A DNA stretch of 64,000 nucleotides, from contig OZ252100.1 in assembly GCA_965248435.1 (NCBI GenBank), positions 2,624,001 through 2,688,000 of the forward strand, read 5' to 3'. The notes below the pieces were generated by a model. That model saw only the letters and a program-made list of their open reading frames with translations, ran no database searches and had not been told where the DNA came from. This document shows positions 17,772 through 24,515 of the stretch, piece after piece (within the stretch, counting starts at the first letter, position 1; every line of letters starts with the position of its first letter). A program made the translations under genes and the position numbers. The stretch is from Candidatus Latescibacterota bacterium (GTDB lineage: Bacteria > Latescibacterota > UBA2968 > GCA-2709665).

Positions 17772-18890
17772 TCAACTTCCCTCCACGTAATTCCGAATAC
17801 CTTTCACAATCCTGTCTGCGTCCTTCTGACGGTTCTTGTGGAACCTCAGGGCCCACGCCTCGCCCATATCGTGCACATTGCGAATTTCCACCAGGATTTC
17901 TGCGCGCGCCTTGTTGTTTCTCAGGACGCCCAGGCTTCGGCCCTTTAGCTGCGCCGGGAGGTTCGGCTGATCCAGGGCCTTCTGCATGACCTGAGCAAAC
18001 TGTCGCGATTTCTGGTCCACCTTTCCCTTTCGCTTCAGGTAAATCGCGAGTGGACCTTTGGGTCTTTCCGGGCTGTTGTCCGCGTGGAGCGAGACAAAGA
18101 GACTCTTGCCCCGGCGCGCCTTCTTGAAGAATCGGTTTGCGATCCTCACACGCTGCGCCAGGTTTCGGCCGCCGGGCCTCACCCCCTCCGAATGCTTCCG
18201 GTTGATCCGTTCGTCATTATACACCTCATTCTGTTCGTGAACAAAGGTGATCACGGCCTGGAGATTCTCGCGAATGAGGTGGTTTGGACTGATCACCGTC
18301 AGCATTACATCTGCGCCAAGAAATTTCAACCTCTCATAGACCCGGAGGGCGATGTCGTAGACATACTCGTCCTCCACGACATAAACCGGCACCTTTCCGG
18401 CCCGATTCGAAACAATAGCGCCTGGGTCGATGCCTCCGTGTCCAGGATCGAGCACGATCTTCCAACCCGAAAGGGGAAGCCGCCGACTTCGGTTTCGCAC
18501 CAGCTTTGACCGAACCTCTGCATCGAGCGCCTTCAGGAGGGTGCGGGCATGCCGGTAATCTTTGAGCGGGCTCCAGGTGGATCGCTCCAGGTAGCGCTGG
18601 CTCTGCTGCGCCTGAACGCGAGGCTTTCGCCAATAGTAGGGGCCGTTCGGGGCCGCAATCTCATCCGGGTTATTGCCCAGTTTCAGAACCTGTCCGGGGT
18701 ACACCCGGTCGCCCTTGAGCTTGTTCAGGAGCTTGATCTCCTTGACGCTCATTTGATACAGACGAGCGATCGACCACAGAGAATCCCCCTTGCGCACCTC
18801 ATAAACGAGCGAAAGCCCCGCCGCTTCCCCCACAGCCATCTGAAGGAGCAGGAGTCCGAGACAGAGTCGGAGAATGGAGCGTGCGATCAT
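17772..18890 (-). CDS. LysM-domain N-acetylmuramoyl-L-alanine amidase (Amidase_3)
   Basis: Signal peptide, LysM YEVRKGDSLWSIA, LDPGHGG.DPGA, FVSLHAD, ILVE; start trimmed to MIARS. Confidence 0.9.
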   Translation of the reverse strand: MIARSILRLCLGLLLLQMAVGEAAGLSLVYEVRKGDSLWSIARLYQMSVKEIKLLNKLKGDRVYPGQVLKLGNNPDEIAAPNGPYYWRKPRVQAQQSQRYLERSTWSPLKDYRHARTLLKALDAEVRSKLVRNRSRRLPLSGWKIVLDPGHGGIDPGAIVSNRAGKVPVYVVEDEYVYDIALRVYERLKFLGADVMLTVISPNHLIRENLQAVITFVHEQNEVYNDERINRKHSEGVRPGGRNLAQRVRIANRFFKKARRGKSLFVSLHADNSPERPKGPLAIYLKRKGKVDQKSRQFAQVMQKALDQPNLPAQLKGRSLGVLRNNKARAEILVEIRNVHDMGEAWALRFHKNRQKDADRIVKGIRNYVEGS

Positions 18891-19051
18891 AAAGAAACGG
18901 GAACGAGAGATGGAGAGATCAGGTAGGGGTCTAAATAATAAGCGTTTACACCGCGATTGGCAAGAGATGCCCAGAACTCTGACAAACTGCCTGACAGAGG
19001 AAATACAAAACATTAGTATGTCAGGGGGGGTGTCTCGGACGCCGACTCAGG

Positions 19052-19090
19052 TTGGGAGTTTTCACCTTCTGGATGGGTGTTTTTCACCAA
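19052..19090 (+). promoter_or_regulatory. Tandem enhancer (UAS) sites, PspF-like
   Basis: ttgggagttttcacctt and tgggtgtttttcaccaa, two related sites about 90-130 bp upstream of a sigma54 promoter. Confidence 0.65.
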
Positions 19091-19178
19091 CAGTTTCCTG
19101 GATCCAATCTTGAACATTTTTGCGTAAATTAAAGTATAGTCTATGACTTGTACTAATGTCACCGCTCGAGGAGCGGTC

Positions 19179-19194
19179 CGGCACAGATCTTGCG
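19179..19194 (+). promoter_or_regulatory. Sigma54 (-24/-12) promoter of pspA
   Basis: CGGCAC-AGATC-TTGCG with exact GG-N10-GC spacing, about 60 bp upstream of the pspA start. Confidence 0.85.
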
Positions 19195-19252
19195 ATGGAC
19201 GAAGGCTGTCCACCACATCGCAAGAATGAGATCTCAATCAGAGGAGTGACCC

Positions 19253-19930
19253 ATGTCCAGAGGAGTCTTTACACGCATGGCAGATATCGTCAAGGCCAAC
19301 ATCAACGACCTCTTGGACCGAGCCGAGGACCCGGAAAAGATGATTCGGCAGATCATCCTAGAAATGGAGGAGGCCGTGAACAAGGCCACGGCCTCCGTCG
19401 CAACGGCCGTGGCCAGTGAGAAGCGTCTGGAACGGCATTGTCTGGAGAAAAGAGACCAGGTTGATCTCTGGCAGAGCAAGGCAGAGCTTGCCGTCAAGTC
19501 GGGCGAAGACGACCTGGCCAGACGCGCCCTCGAGCGAAAGGGGGTCGCGGAACGTGCTGCAGCAGACCTTAGTGCAGCACTCGCCGAGAGCCAAACGACT
19601 TCGGAGCAATTGAAGCAGCAGTTGGCACAACTCAAGGCCAAACTCGACGAGGCACGTATGAGACAGGGCACGCTCATCGCGAGGAGCCAGGCCGCCGACG
19701 CCCGCAAGCGGATCGCCAAGGGCATGTCGGGAATCGGAAACGACGCCGTCTCCAATTTCGAGAGGTTTCGCCGGAGGGTGGAGACCGAAGAGGCCGAAGC
19801 CGATGCCCACGAAGAGATATCGGGCTCTCGGCCATCGCTCGAAGACGCGTTCGAGAAGCTCGAGCACAAGGGATCTGTCGAAGCTGAACTCAAGGCCCTG
19901 AAGCAGAAACTGGGACGGACCGATGAATGA
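19253..19930 (+). CDS. pspA: Phage shock protein A / IM30 family
   Basis: FTRMADIVKANINDLLDRAEDPEKMIRQIILEME, G.DDLARRAL, C-terminal VEAELKALK. Confidence 0.95.
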   Translation: MSRGVFTRMADIVKANINDLLDRAEDPEKMIRQIILEMEEAVNKATASVATAVASEKRLERHCLEKRDQVDLWQSKAELAVKSGEDDLARRALERKGVAERAAADLSAALAESQTTSEQLKQQLAQLKAKLDEARMRQGTLIARSQAADARKRIAKGMSGIGNDAVSNFERFRRRVETEEAEADAHEEISGSRPSLEDAFEKLEHKGSVEAELKALKQKLGRTDE

Positions 19931-20084
19931 GGTCCCCAGAATCGTCGGGGAGATCGTCGGCGAACTCCGCCGAATGGAGAACACGATCAAAGGGGTCTGG
20001 CCGTCGGGGCGACCGAAGATGGAAGCAGGATTGACCGGTCTACCCACACGACTTTCAGACCTCGCCGCAGATGGGAGCTGCGCC

Positions 20085-20531
20085 ATGCGATACCTGTTCG
20101 GTTATCTTTTCAAGGGCGTTGGCGCCCTTGAATGCCTCGGCGGACTGATCATGATTGCCATCACCCTGACCCACCTTACCCAGGGGTGGGATCTTCAGGC
20201 GCTCAGCGTCGGCCTGTTCCTAGTCGCGACGGCCCAGCTCTTCTGGTTTGCAGGGCACCTCCTGCACCGGTCTGCCGATCGCCGTCGATATGCAAATGAC
20301 CAGAACCGCCTCCTCCGACTGGCCCGCGACAAAGGGGGAAGCCTGACAGTGCTCGAAGCGGCGACCGACGGTCGGATGACGGTCGACACGGCAGAAGAAA
20401 TCCTCCGTGAGCTCGCTGCACGCGGTCACGCAGAAGTCCGCGTGTCCGATTCCGGGCTCCTGGTTTACCGCATGACTGAAATCGAGCGCATTGAAGAGAA
20501 GGATCAAGCCAGGCCGGTGGATGAACTCTAA
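20085..20531 (+). CDS. Two-TM protein with C-terminal winged-helix-like domain
   Basis: Two hydrophobic helices then GGSLTVLEAA...AEEILRELAARGHAEVRVSDSGLLVY; start uncertain (19923 or 20085). Confidence 0.7.
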   Translation: MRYLFGYLFKGVGALECLGGLIMIAITLTHLTQGWDLQALSVGLFLVATAQLFWFAGHLLHRSADRRRYANDQNRLLRLARDKGGSLTVLEAATDGRMTVDTAEEILRELAARGHAEVRVSDSGLLVYRMTEIERIEEKDQARPVDEL

Positions 20532-20659
20532 TTATACAACCATTATGAGCTCTTCATGATGATCGACGAAACGGAACAGTAGAAGATCGACAGGCAGAGA
20601 AGCGTACTACATTGCAAACCTTATCTTTCTCTCCGACAACATCTCAAAAGGTGGCGACC

Positions 20660-20839
20660 ATGCTTGCGAAAATCCTTGGCATCCTGTTCGTGGTCATCGG
20701 CGGTGTTCTTGCGATCAGCGTCCTCTTCTTCCTCATCGGGTCGATTATCGGACTGTTGTGGCTCATGGTCAAGCTCCTCGTCCCGATCATTCTCCTCTAC
20801 ATCGGCTACAGGCTCCTCACCCGGGATTCGGAGTATTGA
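20660..20839 (+). CDS. Small hydrophobic membrane protein (59 aa)
   Basis: MLAKILGILFVVIGG...IILLYIGYRLL, almost entirely hydrophobic; AAAGGTGG RBS. Confidence 0.75.
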   Translation: MLAKILGILFVVIGGVLAISVLFFLIGSIIGLLWLMVKLLVPIILLYIGYRLLTRDSEY

Positions 20840-20865
20840 CCGCGTATCAAAGGAGAACCGGATCA

Positions 20866-21441
20866 ATGATCGATGACTCCATACGCAGAACACTGAATGG
20901 GGACCGGAAGGCGTTTAAGGCCATCTACAATGCCCATCACGCTCACGTCCAGGCCTTTGTTACACGCCACACCACCGAATTCGACAGAGTGGAGGACCTG
21001 GTTCAGATCACCTTCCTGCGTGCCTTTCGGGCGCTGCATACCTTCCGGGGAGAGGCGGCGTTCTCAACGTGGCTCATACAGATTGCTCTGAACGTCTGTC
21101 GATCGGATCAGCGGGCCCTTCAGAGAGAAAGGGCACGCTTCTCGTGCAGTGGTGACCCTGAGGCAGAATCTCGTGCCGCATTCAATTTGCCTCGGGCACT
21201 TGAGCTTGACCCGGAGCAACTCTTGCAACAAAAGGAGCGCCGCGACCTCGTGATCCGGGAGATCAACAACCTCCCGGAGCGGTATCGAACCGCCGTATGG
21301 CTTCACTACTTCAGGGACCGGTCCTACGAAGAGATCACTCGCGTGCTTCACGTCCCCATCGGGACAGTCAAGACGTGGATCTTTCGCGCGCGGCAGCAGT
21401 TAAAGGGGCGGTTTCAGCGCATCGGGCTGCAGACCGGGTAG
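20866..21441 (+). CDS. ECF sigma factor
   Basis: EDLVQITFLRAF, FSTWLIQIALN, region 4 SYEEI...PIGTVKTWIFRAR; AAGGAG RBS. Confidence 0.92.
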   Translation: MIDDSIRRTLNGDRKAFKAIYNAHHAHVQAFVTRHTTEFDRVEDLVQITFLRAFRALHTFRGEAAFSTWLIQIALNVCRSDQRALQRERARFSCSGDPEAESRAAFNLPRALELDPEQLLQQKERRDLVIREINNLPERYRTAVWLHYFRDRSYEEITRVLHVPIGTVKTWIFRARQQLKGRFQRIGLQTG

Positions 21442-21472
21442 GCCTCTTCCTGATTACGGAAACTAGGGTATC

Positions 21473-23089
21473 ATGGATTCAGAAAAAGCGAAGGACCGCT
21501 CTCTTACTCCGACAGCTCAGATGGGGCTCCGTGATGACTTCCCCGAGTCGCGGAACGCGGAATCCAGAGAACGTTGTCTGGAGGGGGACAAGGCTGTAAA
21601 TGGAGATCGCCTTAAGGCCGGAGAAGCGGCCTATCAGGATGCACTGAGCGCAGATGAAGAATCTATTCACGCCCTTCACAATCTGGGAGTCGTCTACTAT
21701 ATGATGCAGGAATGGGAGCGGGCAATGAGTTGCTTCGAGTGCTTGGTGGAGTTGGACCCGATGGATATCGACTTTCGAATCAAGCTCGGCCTATCTGCAT
21801 TGAAGAACGGCCAGGTCGAGGTAGCTCACGAACAGTTCGAGATTGCTACAGAGGTCGATCCCGATCACCCTGGTGCCAGGTTCCAGCTGGCGCTCCTCCA
21901 CGCCGCGGGGGGCGCCCCGGGATCTGATGGTCGCCAGCTGGCAATCGAGGCCCTGAAGGAGGTACTCCGCACATCAGATGAGGGGCGACCCTGTGCCGAC
22001 CTCCAGCGAGCCTGTTTTCTGCTGGGAAGCTTGCTTGACGACCTGCCTGAAAACAGGGAAGAAGCCATCGTGGTTTACAGGCGCGGGCTGAAGGAAGACC
22101 CCCTCTTCGCTCCAGGTCACAACAATCTGGGCGTCCTCTTGATGGAGGACGGTCAGACGATCCCCGCGCTCGGTGAATTCAAAATCGCGATCCATCTGGA
22201 ACCCGACTACACGCTTCCCTATCGAAACCTCGCACGCCTCCTTTTTGACAGGATGGACGTCGCAGAGATGGAACAGGAATACACCTCCATCATCGATGAG
22301 TTCGGAGTCCGTTCTGCGTCCGTGCTGGCTAAGCTCTCAAGGGAACTCACCGATCTGGGCAGGGTCCAGGTCTACGAAAGCCTTTACACGCGCGGTCACC
22401 AGATAAAGAACCTTATGGGCATCGCGGGGAGTCGGACCCGTCGCTTCATTCGAAACCAGCCCCCCAGCGGCGATGATCTCGATGAACTGAAGGAGATCGC
22501 TGCCGAGCAGGAGCATATTTATGATGATTGGGTTGCCTACCTCAGATCCATGAAGCAGGAGACCATGAATCCCGGTCTCGTGGATGTAGCTCAACTCGCC
22601 GAAAGGGTCACGCGATCCCTTTCCAGCCAGAAGGGGGCGAAGGAAGTGAGCTTCAAATCAAAGCCCAAGATCCCTCAGGTCAAGGCCGATGCCGGGGCCC
22701 TTCATGAGGCCTTTACGAATCTGATCATGAATGCCCTGGAGGCTGCTCCTGAAGGCGGTAAGGTATCCGTCAGAACCGGATACGATGCGAATCAGAATAC
22801 GGTCTTCGTGGAAATCGAAGACGACGGTCCAGGAATTCCTGAAGCCGCGCAGAAGAAAATTTTTGACCCCGGATACTCCACGAAAGAAAAAGGGAGCGGT
22901 TACGGTCTGAGCATCGCTGCACGGATCGTGGCCGGGCATCGCGGGAACCTCCGAGCATCGAGCAACCAGGATTCCGGAACTGTTTTCAGAATGGACCTGC
23001 CGATCGATTTCGAAATCGCCCCTGAAGAGCGCGGCATTGCTTTCCAGGACCCTTCCTTTCGTCTGCAAGCCGAAGAGTTTGTCGACTGA
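21473..23089 (+). CDS. Soluble TPR-repeat sensor histidine kinase
   Basis: TPRs (HNLGVVY, NNLGVLL), H-box GHQIKNLM, N-box NLIMNA, G1 DDGPGI, G2 GSGYGL; no TM segment. Confidence 0.9.
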   Translation: MDSEKAKDRSLTPTAQMGLRDDFPESRNAESRERCLEGDKAVNGDRLKAGEAAYQDALSADEESIHALHNLGVVYYMMQEWERAMSCFECLVELDPMDIDFRIKLGLSALKNGQVEVAHEQFEIATEVDPDHPGARFQLALLHAAGGAPGSDGRQLAIEALKEVLRTSDEGRPCADLQRACFLLGSLLDDLPENREEAIVVYRRGLKEDPLFAPGHNNLGVLLMEDGQTIPALGEFKIAIHLEPDYTLPYRNLARLLFDRMDVAEMEQEYTSIIDEFGVRSASVLAKLSRELTDLGRVQVYESLYTRGHQIKNLMGIAGSRTRRFIRNQPPSGDDLDELKEIAAEQEHIYDDWVAYLRSMKQETMNPGLVDVAQLAERVTRSLSSQKGAKEVSFKSKPKIPQVKADAGALHEAFTNLIMNALEAAPEGGKVSVRTGYDANQNTVFVEIEDDGPGIPEAAQKKIFDPGYSTKEKGSGYGLSIAARIVAGHRGNLRASSNQDSGTVFRMDLPIDFEIAPEERGIAFQDPSFRLQAEEFVD

Positions 23090-23108
23090 GCCTCCAACGC
23101 TGTAATCC

Positions 23109-24515
23109 ATGAAAACCAATATCCTCATTGCGGACGACCAGCCTGAGGTACTGAACGCGCTCTCACGAAGCCTTCAGTCCGAAGAGCGAAGTGTACACGC
23201 CTTCCGCAGTGGTAGAGAAGCTGTCGCCTTCCTCCGCAGGCACGCCTCAGAAGTGGACCTGGCCATTCTCGACCTGGATTTCGGACCCGACGAGCCTGAC
23301 GGTCTGGAGATCCTCAGACAGACGCGAGAGCTGGCACCCGACCTCCCAGTGATCATCCTGACCGGAAAAGGGACGATCGACACCGCAGTCTCCGCGCTCA
23401 GACTCGGGGCCACCGATTTTATCGAGAAAGATTTCTATCTGGATGAGAAGCTGGAACTTGGACTCGAGAAACTCGATCGGATGCTCTCGGTCCTCAGAGA
23501 AAATGCCGAACTTCGCGAGCAGGTGGACAGTCTGGATCGTGAAAATCGATTCTACAGGGACGAGTTCGGCAGTCGTTACCAGACGGTCAGCGCCAGCCCG
23601 GCCATGCAGAACGTGCTGCAGCAGGCCGAACGAATCGCCTCCATCCCCCGGCCCGTCCTGGTTCTGGGGGAACGTGGTACGGGAAAAGAGCTTGTGGCCG
23701 GCGCAATCCATTTCGGTGGCGTTCGCAAAACCCGCCCGTTCGTAAAGGTCAACTGTGCAGCATTGTCCTCCACCCTGCTGGAAAGTGAACTCTTCGGACA
23801 CGAAAAAGGCGCCTTTACTGGCGCCGATGAGGCCCGTCCCGGCCGGTTCGAGGCTGCGGACGGGGGGACCCTCTTTCTGGACGAAATTGCGAACACCTCT
23901 CCGGAGTTTCAACAGAACGTCCTCAGGGCCATCGAGTACAACGAAGTCCAGAGGGTGGGCAGCCCGAAGCCCATCCCCGTCGATGTACGGATTATCACTG
24001 CAACCAACGCGGACCTGGAGCAGGAAATCGCGAGTGGAAAGTTCCGGGAAGACCTCTACGACCGGCTCCGGTTCGAAGTCATCCGCATTCCCCCCATCAG
24101 AGAACGGCGTGAAGATATCAGGCCGCTCGCCGAATTTTTTGTTGCCGAAATCAGCAAAGAAGTCGCGGGTCCCATCGCGCACGCCATCTCGAAGGCTGCG
24201 TTTGACCGACTACTCGCCTACTCCTGGCCAGGGAACGTTCGTGAGCTCAAGTTCGCCGTCGAACGCGCAGCCTGCGTTGCCGCGTCCGATACCATCCAGC
24301 CTGGAGACCTCCCTCCCGAAGTCGCCGGCGAAACGCCTGACGCATCCGAACAGGGCTTTGAAAAGCAGGTCGAAACCTTCGAACTCGGGCTGCTCAGACA
24401 AGCCTTGCGAAGTGCAGGGTGGAACCAGAGGCAGGCAGCGTCACATCTCGGACTCAGCTATGATCAGTTTCGCCATCTCTATCGGAAGTACCACCTCGAC
24501 CGCGAAAAACCGTAG
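23109..24515 (+). CDS. Sigma54-dependent response regulator, REC plus PspF-like AAA+ plus HTH
   Basis: REC (ADD, ILD, T, K), GERGTGKE, GAFTGA, IEY, ATNADL, DLYDRLRFEV, HTH NQRQAASHLGLSYDQFR. Confidence 0.92.
   Translation: MKTNILIADDQPEVLNALSRSLQSEERSVHAFRSGREAVAFLRRHASEVDLAILDLDFGPDEPDGLEILRQTRELAPDLPVIILTGKGTIDTAVSALRLGATDFIEKDFYLDEKLELGLEKLDRMLSVLRENAELREQVDSLDRENRFYRDEFGSRYQTVSASPAMQNVLQQAERIASIPRPVLVLGERGTGKELVAGAIHFGGVRKTRPFVKVNCAALSSTLLESELFGHEKGAFTGADEARPGRFEAADGGTLFLDEIANTSPEFQQNVLRAIEYNEVQRVGSPKPIPVDVRIITATNADLEQEIASGKFREDLYDRLRFEVIRIPPIRERREDIRPLAEFFVAEISKEVAGPIAHAISKAAFDRLLAYSWPGNVRELKFAVERAACVAASDTIQPGDLPPEVAGETPDASEQGFEKQVETFELGLLRQALRSAGWNQRQAASHLGLSYDQFRHLYRKYHLDREKP

Follow-up and report, generated by a model that had tools for sequence, protein, structure and literature searches.

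We describe a gene cluster from an uncultured Candidatus Latescibacterota bacterium that is likely to be a phage-shock (Psp) operon with a phosphorylation-controlled activator of the PspF clade. The cluster occupies positions 19052-24515 of a 64,000-nt stretch of contig OZ252100.1 (hereafter the window; C1:2624001-2688000 in contig numbering). It comprises six plus-strand genes, coding for PspA, a membrane protein of 202 residues (p202), a 59-residue membrane protein, an extracytoplasmic function (ECF) sigma factor, a soluble histidine kinase with tetratricopeptide repeats (TPR) and a sigma-54 activator bearing a receiver (REC) domain, which we call REC-PspF. Successive genes are spaced by -8, 128, 26, 31 and 19 nt, and no terminator-like sites were found on the plus strand within the cluster. 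The genome to which the window belongs (G000) is 97.5% complete at 5.67 Mb and has rpoN.

The original prediction, made from this stretch of DNA, had described a Psp envelope-stress locus rewired through a TPR kinase, a receiver-fused PspF and an ECF sigma factor. All the elements it had listed (enhancer dyads, promoter, the six genes and a divergent amidase gene) are present where it had placed them. Its picture of a Psp locus with a PspF-clade activator wired to a two-component input was supported, while the part given to the ECF sigma factor was overstated. The main elements are as follows (aa, amino acids; TM, transmembrane; HTH, helix-turn-helix).

19052-19068, plus strand: putative upstream activator site 1, a 17-bp imperfect dyad, TTGGGAGTTTTCACCTT
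19074-19090, plus strand: putative upstream activator site 2, a 17-bp dyad 22 bp from site 1, TGGGTGTTTTTCACCAA
19180-19193, plus strand: predicted sigma-54 promoter, -24 GG/-12 GC element GGCACagatcTTGC, 60 nt before the pspA ATG
19253-19930, plus strand: pspA, 225 aa, PspA/IM30 (ESCRT-III-like) effector (PF04012, 163.5 bits)
19923-20531, plus strand: p202, 202 aa, N-terminal helix, 2-TM hairpin and C-terminal winged helix
20660-20839, plus strand: 59-aa 2-TM hairpin protein (MLAKILGI...GYRL), hydrophobic over residues 1-55
20866-21441, plus strand: ECF sigma factor, 191 aa, Sigma70_r2 and Sigma70_r4_2, an accessory module of one order
21473-23089, plus strand: soluble TPR histidine kinase, 538 aa, with TPR helices (29-260), a dimerization and histidine phosphotransfer (DHp) domain with His309 and a catalytic and ATP-binding (CA) domain (368-510)
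23109-24515, plus strand: REC-PspF, 468 aa, receiver, sigma-54 AAA+ domain (GAFTGA) and Fis-type HTH

For comparison we used 24 loci of relatives, 16 from families f1 and f2 of the window's own order and eight from f4, a family of the sister order. G and L numbers denote genomes and loci of relatives.

The activator and its relationship to PspF

In REC-PspF Pfam identifies Response_reg (77 bits, residues 5-113), Sigma54_activat, AAA_lid_14 and HTH_8 domains. The receiver is present in the orthologues of all 24 relatives. Together with the window's protein, all 25 sequences carry the acceptor motif LD(L/I/F)D(F/Y)G, from whose position we take Asp55 to be the predicted acceptor, and all 25 have GAFTGA or GAYTGA. 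Aligned with PspF of E. coli K-12, REC-PspF is 44% identical over 311 residues, a stretch that runs through the HTH to the end of PspF. For the whole protein the best NCBIfam model is PspF (TIGR02974, 357.3 bits), and NtrC comes next (347.3 bits).

The genome has 24 matches to PF00158, 21 of them at 120 bits or more. We extracted 20 AAA+ domains, leaving out one partial match (C1:5533949) and three weak ones. Among these 20 domains, none matches E. coli PspF better than that of REC-PspF (52% identity, 246 bits; the next has 46% and 225 bits). It is also the only one of the 18 domains scanned with NCBIfam (two slices with in-frame stops were omitted) for which PspF is the top model, at 320.1 bits compared with 319.8 for NifA.

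The evolutionary position of the activator was analyzed in a careful maximum-likelihood tree of AAA+ domains (IQ-TREE, LG+C20 PMSF, 51 rows). The rows comprised the window's regulator with 14 Latescibacterota orthologues, E. coli PspF with 15 REC-less bacterial enhancer-binding proteins (bEBPs) encoded divergently next to pspA, 19 paralogues from the window's genome and one deltaproteobacterial REC-bEBP. The 15 classical bEBPs carry Proteobacteria, Desulfobacterota, Binatia and Gemmatimonadota labels; a near-duplicate locus from Vibrio was not included. A single clade on a stem of 0.61 unites the 16 PspFs with the 15 Latescibacterota regulators (support 100/100), and it is present in 100% of the 200 bootstrap trees. 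The 19 paralogues tested from the genome all lie outside this clade, and none of them is a classical PspF. Within the clade the two groups are sisters, with support of 99/96 for the Latescibacterota group in the careful tree and 99 for the PspF group in a quick tree. Gain and loss of the receiver are not told apart by the AAA+ tree. Judged from these comparisons, the activator is a real PspF relative and not a generic NtrC, in agreement with what had been predicted for it.

Sigma-54 promoter and upstream sites

The promoter element is the sole match to GGCAC-N5-TTGC in the 64-kb window. Because 0.42 matches are expected by chance (31 of 100 shuffles contain at least one), a single match is weak evidence alone, and the strength of the assignment comes from conservation of the motif across relatives. 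A strict form of the motif, GG[CT]A[CT]-N5-TTGC, lies 70-108 nt before the pspA ATG in all 16 loci examined for the window's order (the window and 15 f1/f2 relatives) and 63-110 nt before it in all eight f4 loci. It is likewise found in 35 of 35 Latescibacterota-type loci of the PspA-alignment scan described below, whose genomes are partly the same.

The upstream sites are nearly as widespread. The f1/f2 dyads have the consensus TTGGTG-N5-CACCAA and occur as two copies 21-22 bp apart, some 90-136 bp before the -24 element. Searched for by the pattern GG-N9-CC in the interval 80-150 bp upstream of this element, the pair was found in 15 of 16 f1/f2 loci, and the sixteenth locus departs from the pattern by one mismatch. 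In f4 the half-sites read TGGCG/CGCCA and the paired layout is retained, with the pair matched by a regular expression in six of eight loci; such a shift would be expected if the sites and the DNA-binding domain had evolved together. Both predicted elements are thus borne out across relatives, the promoter in every readable locus and the sites in most.

A regular expression for the pair (GGY-N7-RCC) misses site 1 of the window. Instead we used a weight matrix built from 30 sites, the window's own included. Over the 5.67-Mb genome the matrix gives 262 single sites and one pair spaced by 20-23 bp, and this sole pair, at C1:2643052, corresponds to window position 19052, upstream of pspA. The distribution of predicted sites suggests that the regulon of REC-PspF is probably a dedicated one, consisting of a single operon.

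The spacer between the sites and the promoter is richer in AT than its surroundings in all 16 loci. A canonical integration host factor site in this spacer was considered and rejected, WATCARN4TTR being found in just one of the 16 loci. Also between the activator sites and the promoter there is a sigma-70-like match, TGAACA-18-TATAGT (9/12; 19111-19140, plus strand); it is a consensus match only, and it could supply basal expression of the operon. One additional feature overlaps the -12 element.

19188-19225, plus strand: 10-bp perfect inverted repeat, TCTTGCGATG / CATCGCAAGA, unexplained

None of 200 shuffles reached a repeat of this kind. As a conserved structure it was discarded, since it is not conserved in 23 relatives.

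The TPR histidine kinase

Both the sequence and the structural model indicate that the protein encoded 19 nt upstream of the activator gene is a complete, soluble histidine kinase. Pfam detects HATPase_c (83.4 bits) and TPR families. The protein has about 6.5 TPR repeats. The NCBIfam models of NtrB, CreC, AtoS and ZraS align over residues ~297-512, covering both DHp and CA. In 30 of 30 homologues the residues His309 (GHxIKNLMG), N416/N420, D450xGxG454 and G474xGxG478 are invariant. Hydropathy analysis found no TM segments in the kinase (maximum KD19 0.69) and likewise none in the activator. In the AF2 model (pLDDT 80.9), 13 helices at 29-260 are followed by a long helix (263-298), a DHp hairpin (302-328 and 336-360) and an alpha/beta CA domain (368-510); the C-terminal tail is disordered in this monomer model, with pLDDT about 31. 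The top Foldseek match is the cytoplasmic domain of ZraS (E = 5.6e-11), and HK853, CckA and TPR superhelices are also matched.

The kinase family is small, and its members are labelled Latescibacterota, 'Gemmatimonadota' or 'bacterium'. At E <1e-150 an orthologue is present in 39 of the 41 genomes of the window's order, the exceptions being G001 and G032. At E <=1e-40, orthologues are found in 98 of 168 genomes of the phylum: 20/21 in f1, 28/31 in f2, 49/76 in f4 and 0/39 in 11 other families. A search for related loci seeded with the kinase protein alone returned none.

Conservation of the cluster and its reduced form in the window's genome

According to tblastn, pspA, p202, the ECF sigma factor, the kinase and the regulator are colinear in all 16 f1/f2 loci, with two exceptions in detail: L020 has only a fragment of p202, and in L031 the stretch ends within pspA. 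All eight f4 loci share another layout, in which pspA and p202 are followed by one to three PspB-like genes, the kinase and the regulator, and neither an ECF sigma factor nor a flotillin is encoded. Accordingly, pspA, p202, the TPR kinase and REC-PspF are colinear in 24 of 24 relatives from two orders. For pspA, the TPR kinase and REC-PspF this is the synteny that the original prediction had proposed to look for. For the ECF sigma factor, which it had counted among the same set, synteny extends to all 16 f1/f2 loci and to none of the eight in f4; five f4 genomes have no orthologue of it at all, their best matches being paralogues of 30-35% identity. The ECF sigma factor hence does not belong to the core of the architecture, contrary to what had been proposed. 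The core consists of pspA, p202, a PspB-like gene, the TPR kinase and the REC activator.

Relatives from f1/f2 carry additional genes. Between the ECF sigma factor and the kinase they code for a membrane protein of ~200 aa and a Band_7 flotillin of ~500 aa (93 bits), and other extra genes code for further small membrane proteins, among them one with a TM2 domain, and in L017 for a STAS protein. The small protein, the ECF sigma factor, the membrane protein and the flotillin together are a module of one order only. None of the relatives' extra genes (PspB-like, membrane protein, flotillin and others) has a tblastn match anywhere in the window's genome, and for this reason we regard the window's cluster as a reduced version; its genome has lost the PspB-like and flotillin genes. 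That the locus is the reduced form of a larger conserved cluster had been missed by the earlier account. In L031 a run of the heptamer GTTGTCA separates the small membrane gene from the ECF sigma gene.

A broader view is provided by a scan based on a PspA alignment, which returned 80 loci; record titles name Candidatus Latescibacterota, in some cases under older 'Gemmatimonadetes' labels. In 31 of the 80 loci a kinase and a REC activator lie downstream of pspA, and four more have p202 and end at a contig edge. These 35 loci are all of Latescibacterota type (their genomes partly repeat the earlier counts). Another 16 loci have a classical, divergent, REC-less pspF, and half of these (8/16) also matched E. 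coli PspB. The remaining 29 showed no match to the queries and no promoter motif; they are mostly labelled Bacteroidota, Ignavibacteria, Kapaibacteria or Chlorobiota, and their PspA is 54-60% identical. This unmatched class (L087-L126) holds the closest PspAs outside the phylum, and neither a bEBP nor a sigma-54 motif lies near them. Among six listed loci of the class, five have a same-strand gene after pspA for a protein of ~155-178 aa (342 aa in L097) with a shared N-terminal pattern; in L087 a minus-strand open reading frame follows pspA instead.

A genome of the same genus, G001 (4.1 Mb; locus L065, C1:1008500-1024500), has kept pspA (81% identical) with the same flanking genes; its ECF sigma factor, kinase and regulator genes have been lost, together with most of p202. 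The promoter sequence there is GGCAC-N5-CTGC, and the activator sites are decaying. Downstream, an alcohol-dehydrogenase-like gene of G001 matches in three pieces.

PspA and candidate membrane partners

Aligned along its whole length, PspA of the window shares 37% identity with E. coli PspA, and the N-terminal half is strongly conserved. It scores 184.9 bits on TIGR02977, under the equivalog cut-off of 242.95, and 93.5 bits on the LiaH model, for which the cut-off is 380.

The Pfam families of PspB (PF06667) and PspC (PF04024) have no match anywhere in the genome. The predicted lack of pspB and pspC is therefore correct for this genome. It does not carry over to the relatives, which encode at the pspA cluster one to several PspB-like proteins of ~70 aa in f1/f2, each with one TM segment and a coiled coil. 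With E. coli PspB these proteins give no BLAST alignment and an hhalign probability of 12.6%. Since the 19 tested bEBPs are not classical PspFs and PspB and PspC are unmatched genome-wide, the possibility raised earlier that a canonical pspF/pspBC set elsewhere in the genome controls pspA found no support. None of the three outcomes that the prediction had named as refuting it emerged from the analyses made here.

The gene next to pspA, p202, starts 8 nt before the end of pspA, an overlap also seen in relatives. The protein has no Pfam or NCBIfam match. Its hydrophobic segments by hydropathy are residues 62-86 and 91-114, and in the AF2 model (pLDDT 84.5) residues 4-25 form a helix, 42-83 and 91-136 a TM hairpin and 137-195 a winged helix. 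Foldseek returned weak winged-helix matches only (E >=4e-3; MarR, TFE-alpha, ArsR and ESCRT-II). The ESCRT-II match (3cuq_A, rmsd 1.5 over 59 columns) is a lead only. Matches to p202 were obtained in all 24 relatives, limited to the fragment in L020 and to the C-terminal half in f4. Two C-terminal features are confined to the f1/f2 order: a near-invariant PVDEL ending in p202 and an AEEF tail on the kinase.

Homologues of p202 fall into 143 clusters, all of hypothetical proteins with the labels Latescibacterota, 'Gemmatimonadota' or 'bacterium', and an Atlas search with p202 gave unnamed clusters besides the one that contains p202 itself. When 1.84 billion representatives were searched with a profile, 1248 proteins were found at E <=1e-3. 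This wider family includes many forms of ~150 aa, such as that of the Bacillota member Evansella caseinilytica, which consist of the TM hairpin and winged helix only, as well as some fusions to TMEM43 or RDD domains. The module of TM hairpin and winged helix is not covered by any Pfam model. We consider p202 a candidate membrane partner of PspA or of the kinase.

The 59-aa protein, which like p202 has no Pfam family above the cut-off, is encoded directly before the ECF gene in 17 of 17 f1/f2 loci; the copy in L026 looks frameshifted.

Proposed mechanism and alternative explanations

The mechanism we propose for this Psp operon, which belongs to a class of Candidatus Latescibacterota, runs as follows. 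The pspA gene and the genes behind it would be transcribed from the sigma-54 promoter, activated from the two tandem dyads some 100-125 bp upstream of it. The kinase would phosphorylate Asp55 of the receiver, and phosphorylation would release or assemble the AAA+ ring, which would then open the sigma-54 promoter complex. PspA would be produced along with its putative membrane partner p202; in the f1/f2 order the ECF sigma factor would be co-produced and could widen the response. Because the kinase is cytoplasmic, its TPR domain probably takes the signal from a protein, which may be p202, the PspB-like proteins of relatives or PspA. The comparisons themselves establish gene content, the completeness of the domains, clade membership, synteny and the conservation of promoter and sites. 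Inferred from sequence are phosphotransfer and activation, transcription of the cluster as one unit, what kind of signal is sensed and what the ECF sigma factor does.

Several points weigh against a Psp operon under a phosphorylation-controlled PspF-clade activator. REC-PspF, at 357.3 bits, is under the PspF equivalog cut-off of 443.55, and its best full-length match among solved structures is Aquifex NtrC1. The outgroups of the AAA+ tree are paralogues from the same genome and one deltaproteobacterial REC-bEBP only, without reference NtrC or NifA families. Pfam HisKA gives no match on the kinase. The strict promoter expression matches none of the 16 classical psp loci, and a looser version matches four; the E. 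coli psp promoter itself, GGCAC-N5-TTGT, is outside it. It follows from the lack of classical matches that this expression is stricter than real sigma-54 psp promoters, and it gauges conservation, not function. The uniqueness of the site pair in the genome is partly circular, because the window's sites helped to train the matrix. A kinase and a regulator encoded behind their own target promoter need separate basal expression, and only the weak match at 19111-19140 was seen for it. Finally, G001 shows that pspA can persist after kinase, regulator and ECF sigma factor have been lost.

An alternative that we regard as unlikely, though by no means negligible, is dual control, in which PspA still inhibits the activator directly and the receiver and kinase add a second input or a means of tuning. 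The placement of the AAA+ domain within the PspF clade and the strongly conserved N-terminal half of PspA are in keeping with it. PspA has been found to bind PspF at the W56 loop (PMC6003685, PMC3791423), and a second PspA site on PspF has been proposed (PMC6003685); papers cited here and below by PMC number are relied on for the parts of their text that were available. The Trp56 position itself argues against direct inhibition: it aligns with Lys207 of REC-PspF, and all 25 orthologues have K, R, S or A there.

Alternatively, pspA might be driven mainly by the ECF sigma factor, as by sigma-W in B. subtilis, with the sigma-54 system being secondary or acting elsewhere. The ECF protein holds sigma-70 regions 2 and 4 only (PF04542, 51.3 bits; PF08281, 59.2 bits) and scores 88.4 bits on TIGR02937 (cut-off 42.9); no anti-sigma domains were found by Pfam among its neighbours. 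Its presence in all 16 f1/f2 clusters and the flotillin there in relatives speak for such control. However, the eight f4 loci that lack the ECF sigma factor all keep the sigma-54 promoter, and inspection by eye only, with no formal motif search, revealed no conserved ECF-type promoter in front of pspA or the 59-aa gene. This makes an ECF-driven pspA very improbable.

It is scarcely credible that the locus harbors a generic NtrBC-type two-component system which lies next to pspA by chance and regulates other genes. The structural match to NtrC1 and the nearly equal whole-protein scores of the NtrC, AtoC and PspF models of NCBIfam would fit this view, but the colinearity with pspA in 24 relatives of two orders, the position of the regulator inside the PspF clade and the sole genomic site pair upstream of pspA oppose it. 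Equally hard to maintain is that the TPR-HATPase protein is a serine kinase or an anti-sigma-type partner-switching protein acting on the ECF sigma factor or a STAS protein: the missing HisKA match, a HATPase_c_2 score of 29.7 bits (cut-off 27.4), homologues named 'anti-sigma regulatory factor (Ser/Thr protein kinase)' and the STAS gene in the cluster of L017 are outweighed by the invariant His309 in an H box on the predicted DHp hairpin, by NtrB, CreC and AtoS models spanning DHp and CA, by ZraS as the best fold match and by f4, which keeps the kinase-regulator pair without an ECF sigma or STAS gene.

A speculative role for p202

Phosphorylation control of REC-PspF can be extended into a joint reading that we put forward as speculation and consider distinctly improbable as a whole, namely that trans-inhibition of PspF by PspA has been replaced by a phosphorelay reading the state of membrane-tethered p202. 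Membrane stress would recruit the ESCRT-III-like PspA to p202, or to the PspB-like proteins of relatives; the recruitment would alter ligand binding by the TPR domain, and the kinase would then switch on. In f1/f2 the candidate TPR ligands would be PVDEL, at the end of p202, and AEEF, the tail of the kinase itself. The winged helix might be an ESCRT-II-like docking module for a bacterial ESCRT-III. From the REC-bearing and REC-less sister clades it might further be supposed that classical PspF descends from a two-component regulator whose receiver it no longer has. As a class-wide mechanism, binding of the C-terminal tail by the TPR domain is weakened, because the PVDEL and AEEF tails exist only in f1/f2.

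Comparison with known systems

PspF is the textbook enhancer-binding protein without a sensory domain, controlled only in trans by PspA. It has been classified as a class Ic bEBP lacking a signal domain (PMC3162934). The present locus shares with the PspF-PspABC systems of E. coli and Yersinia the PspA effector, a sigma-54 promoter with upstream sites and a PspF-clade activator with a Fis-type HTH. Unlike E. coli PspF, the activator bears a receiver and lacks Trp56; its gene is downstream and co-directional instead of divergent, and it has a cognate soluble TPR kinase. The genome has no Pfam match to PspB or PspC, and the place of partners is taken by p202 and, in relatives, by PspB-like proteins of uncertain homology.

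LiaR of B. subtilis acts at a sigma-70-type promoter. The LiaIH-LiaFSR system to which it belongs resembles our locus in that a two-component system governs a PspA homologue whose gene lies next to one for a small membrane protein (PMC9239133, PMC11237479). It differs in that LiaS is a membrane kinase and LiaR a REC-HTH protein, in contrast to the soluble TPR kinase and sigma-54 AAA+ activator described here, and no Lia-type partner is encoded in the cluster. Another B. subtilis operon, pspA-ydjGHI, is controlled by sigma-W and codes for the SPFH protein YdjI (PMC8581546). The relatives' clusters are similar to it in joining pspA, an ECF sigma factor, a membrane protein of ~200 aa and a Band_7 flotillin; here, however, the ECF sigma factor is encoded inside the operon, the pspA promoter is of the sigma-54 type and the flotillin is lost from the window's genome.

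With NtrB/NtrC-class pairs such as ZraSR and AtoSC the locus has in common a REC-AAA+-HTH_8 regulator beside an NtrB/ZraS-like DHp-CA kinase. It is set apart by the PspF-clade AAA+ domain, by a cytoplasmic TPR sensor without membrane or PAS input and by pspA as the target. HrpL is an ECF sigma factor, and an ECF gene inside a sigma-54 operon follows the same cascade logic as the HrpR/HrpS-hrpL system. In Pseudomonas syringae, HrpRS activate the hrpL promoter (PMC3105312); unlike the activator studied here they lack a receiver, and they act on type III secretion, without involvement of PspA.

Previous surveys have noted PspF variants with ACT/PAS domains and LiaRS-type two-component systems (PMC11237479) and the difficulty of tying PspF to Psp outside Enterobacteriaceae (PMC9239133), and a single-component PspF-like bEBP, DVU2989, is known from Desulfovibrio (PMC4641369). 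In the literature available to us we found no published description of a receiver-fused PspF or of a TPR kinase beside pspA; the supplementary tables and the web app of the surveys may list such cases.

The Latescibacterota activators represent a sister lineage of PspF with a receiver and a dedicated soluble TPR kinase and without the PspA-docking tryptophan. They offer a natural comparison for how the control of a sigma-54 activator may shift between trans-inhibition and phosphorylation. They also suggest a testable route by which a cytoplasmic kinase could sense membrane stress, through protein partners. With this locus, Psp regulation reaches an uncultured FCB-group phylum, and PspA is connected with a widespread but unnamed family of winged-helix proteins tethered to the membrane.

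Neighbouring genes and a second pspA

Scans of the window with Rfam (gathering threshold) and for tRNAs gave no matches. The divergent neighbour of the cluster, whose membership is uncertain, is the following.

17772-19013, minus strand: LysM + Amidase_3 cell-wall amidase gene (Pfam)

It is seen in 13 of the 16 f1/f2 loci, and the other three stretches stop before its position is reached; the eight f4 loci have no match to it. In many f1/f2 relatives (L016-L030) a palindrome noticed by eye, TTTGTC-N7-GACAAG, lies ~60-90 bp upstream of the activator sites and adjoins the start of the amidase gene. In the window a different dyad, CTCTGACAAACTGCCTGACAGAG, is found there.

The window's genome codes for a second PspA paralogue ~260 kb away (C1:2905559-2909239), in a cluster of CesT_Tir_1 (159 bits), PspA, DUF4178 and spermine synthase genes. 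Such a setting has been described in connection with CesT/Tir and band-7 operons (PMC11237479). A small TPR protein is encoded upstream of the second cluster, on the opposite strand.

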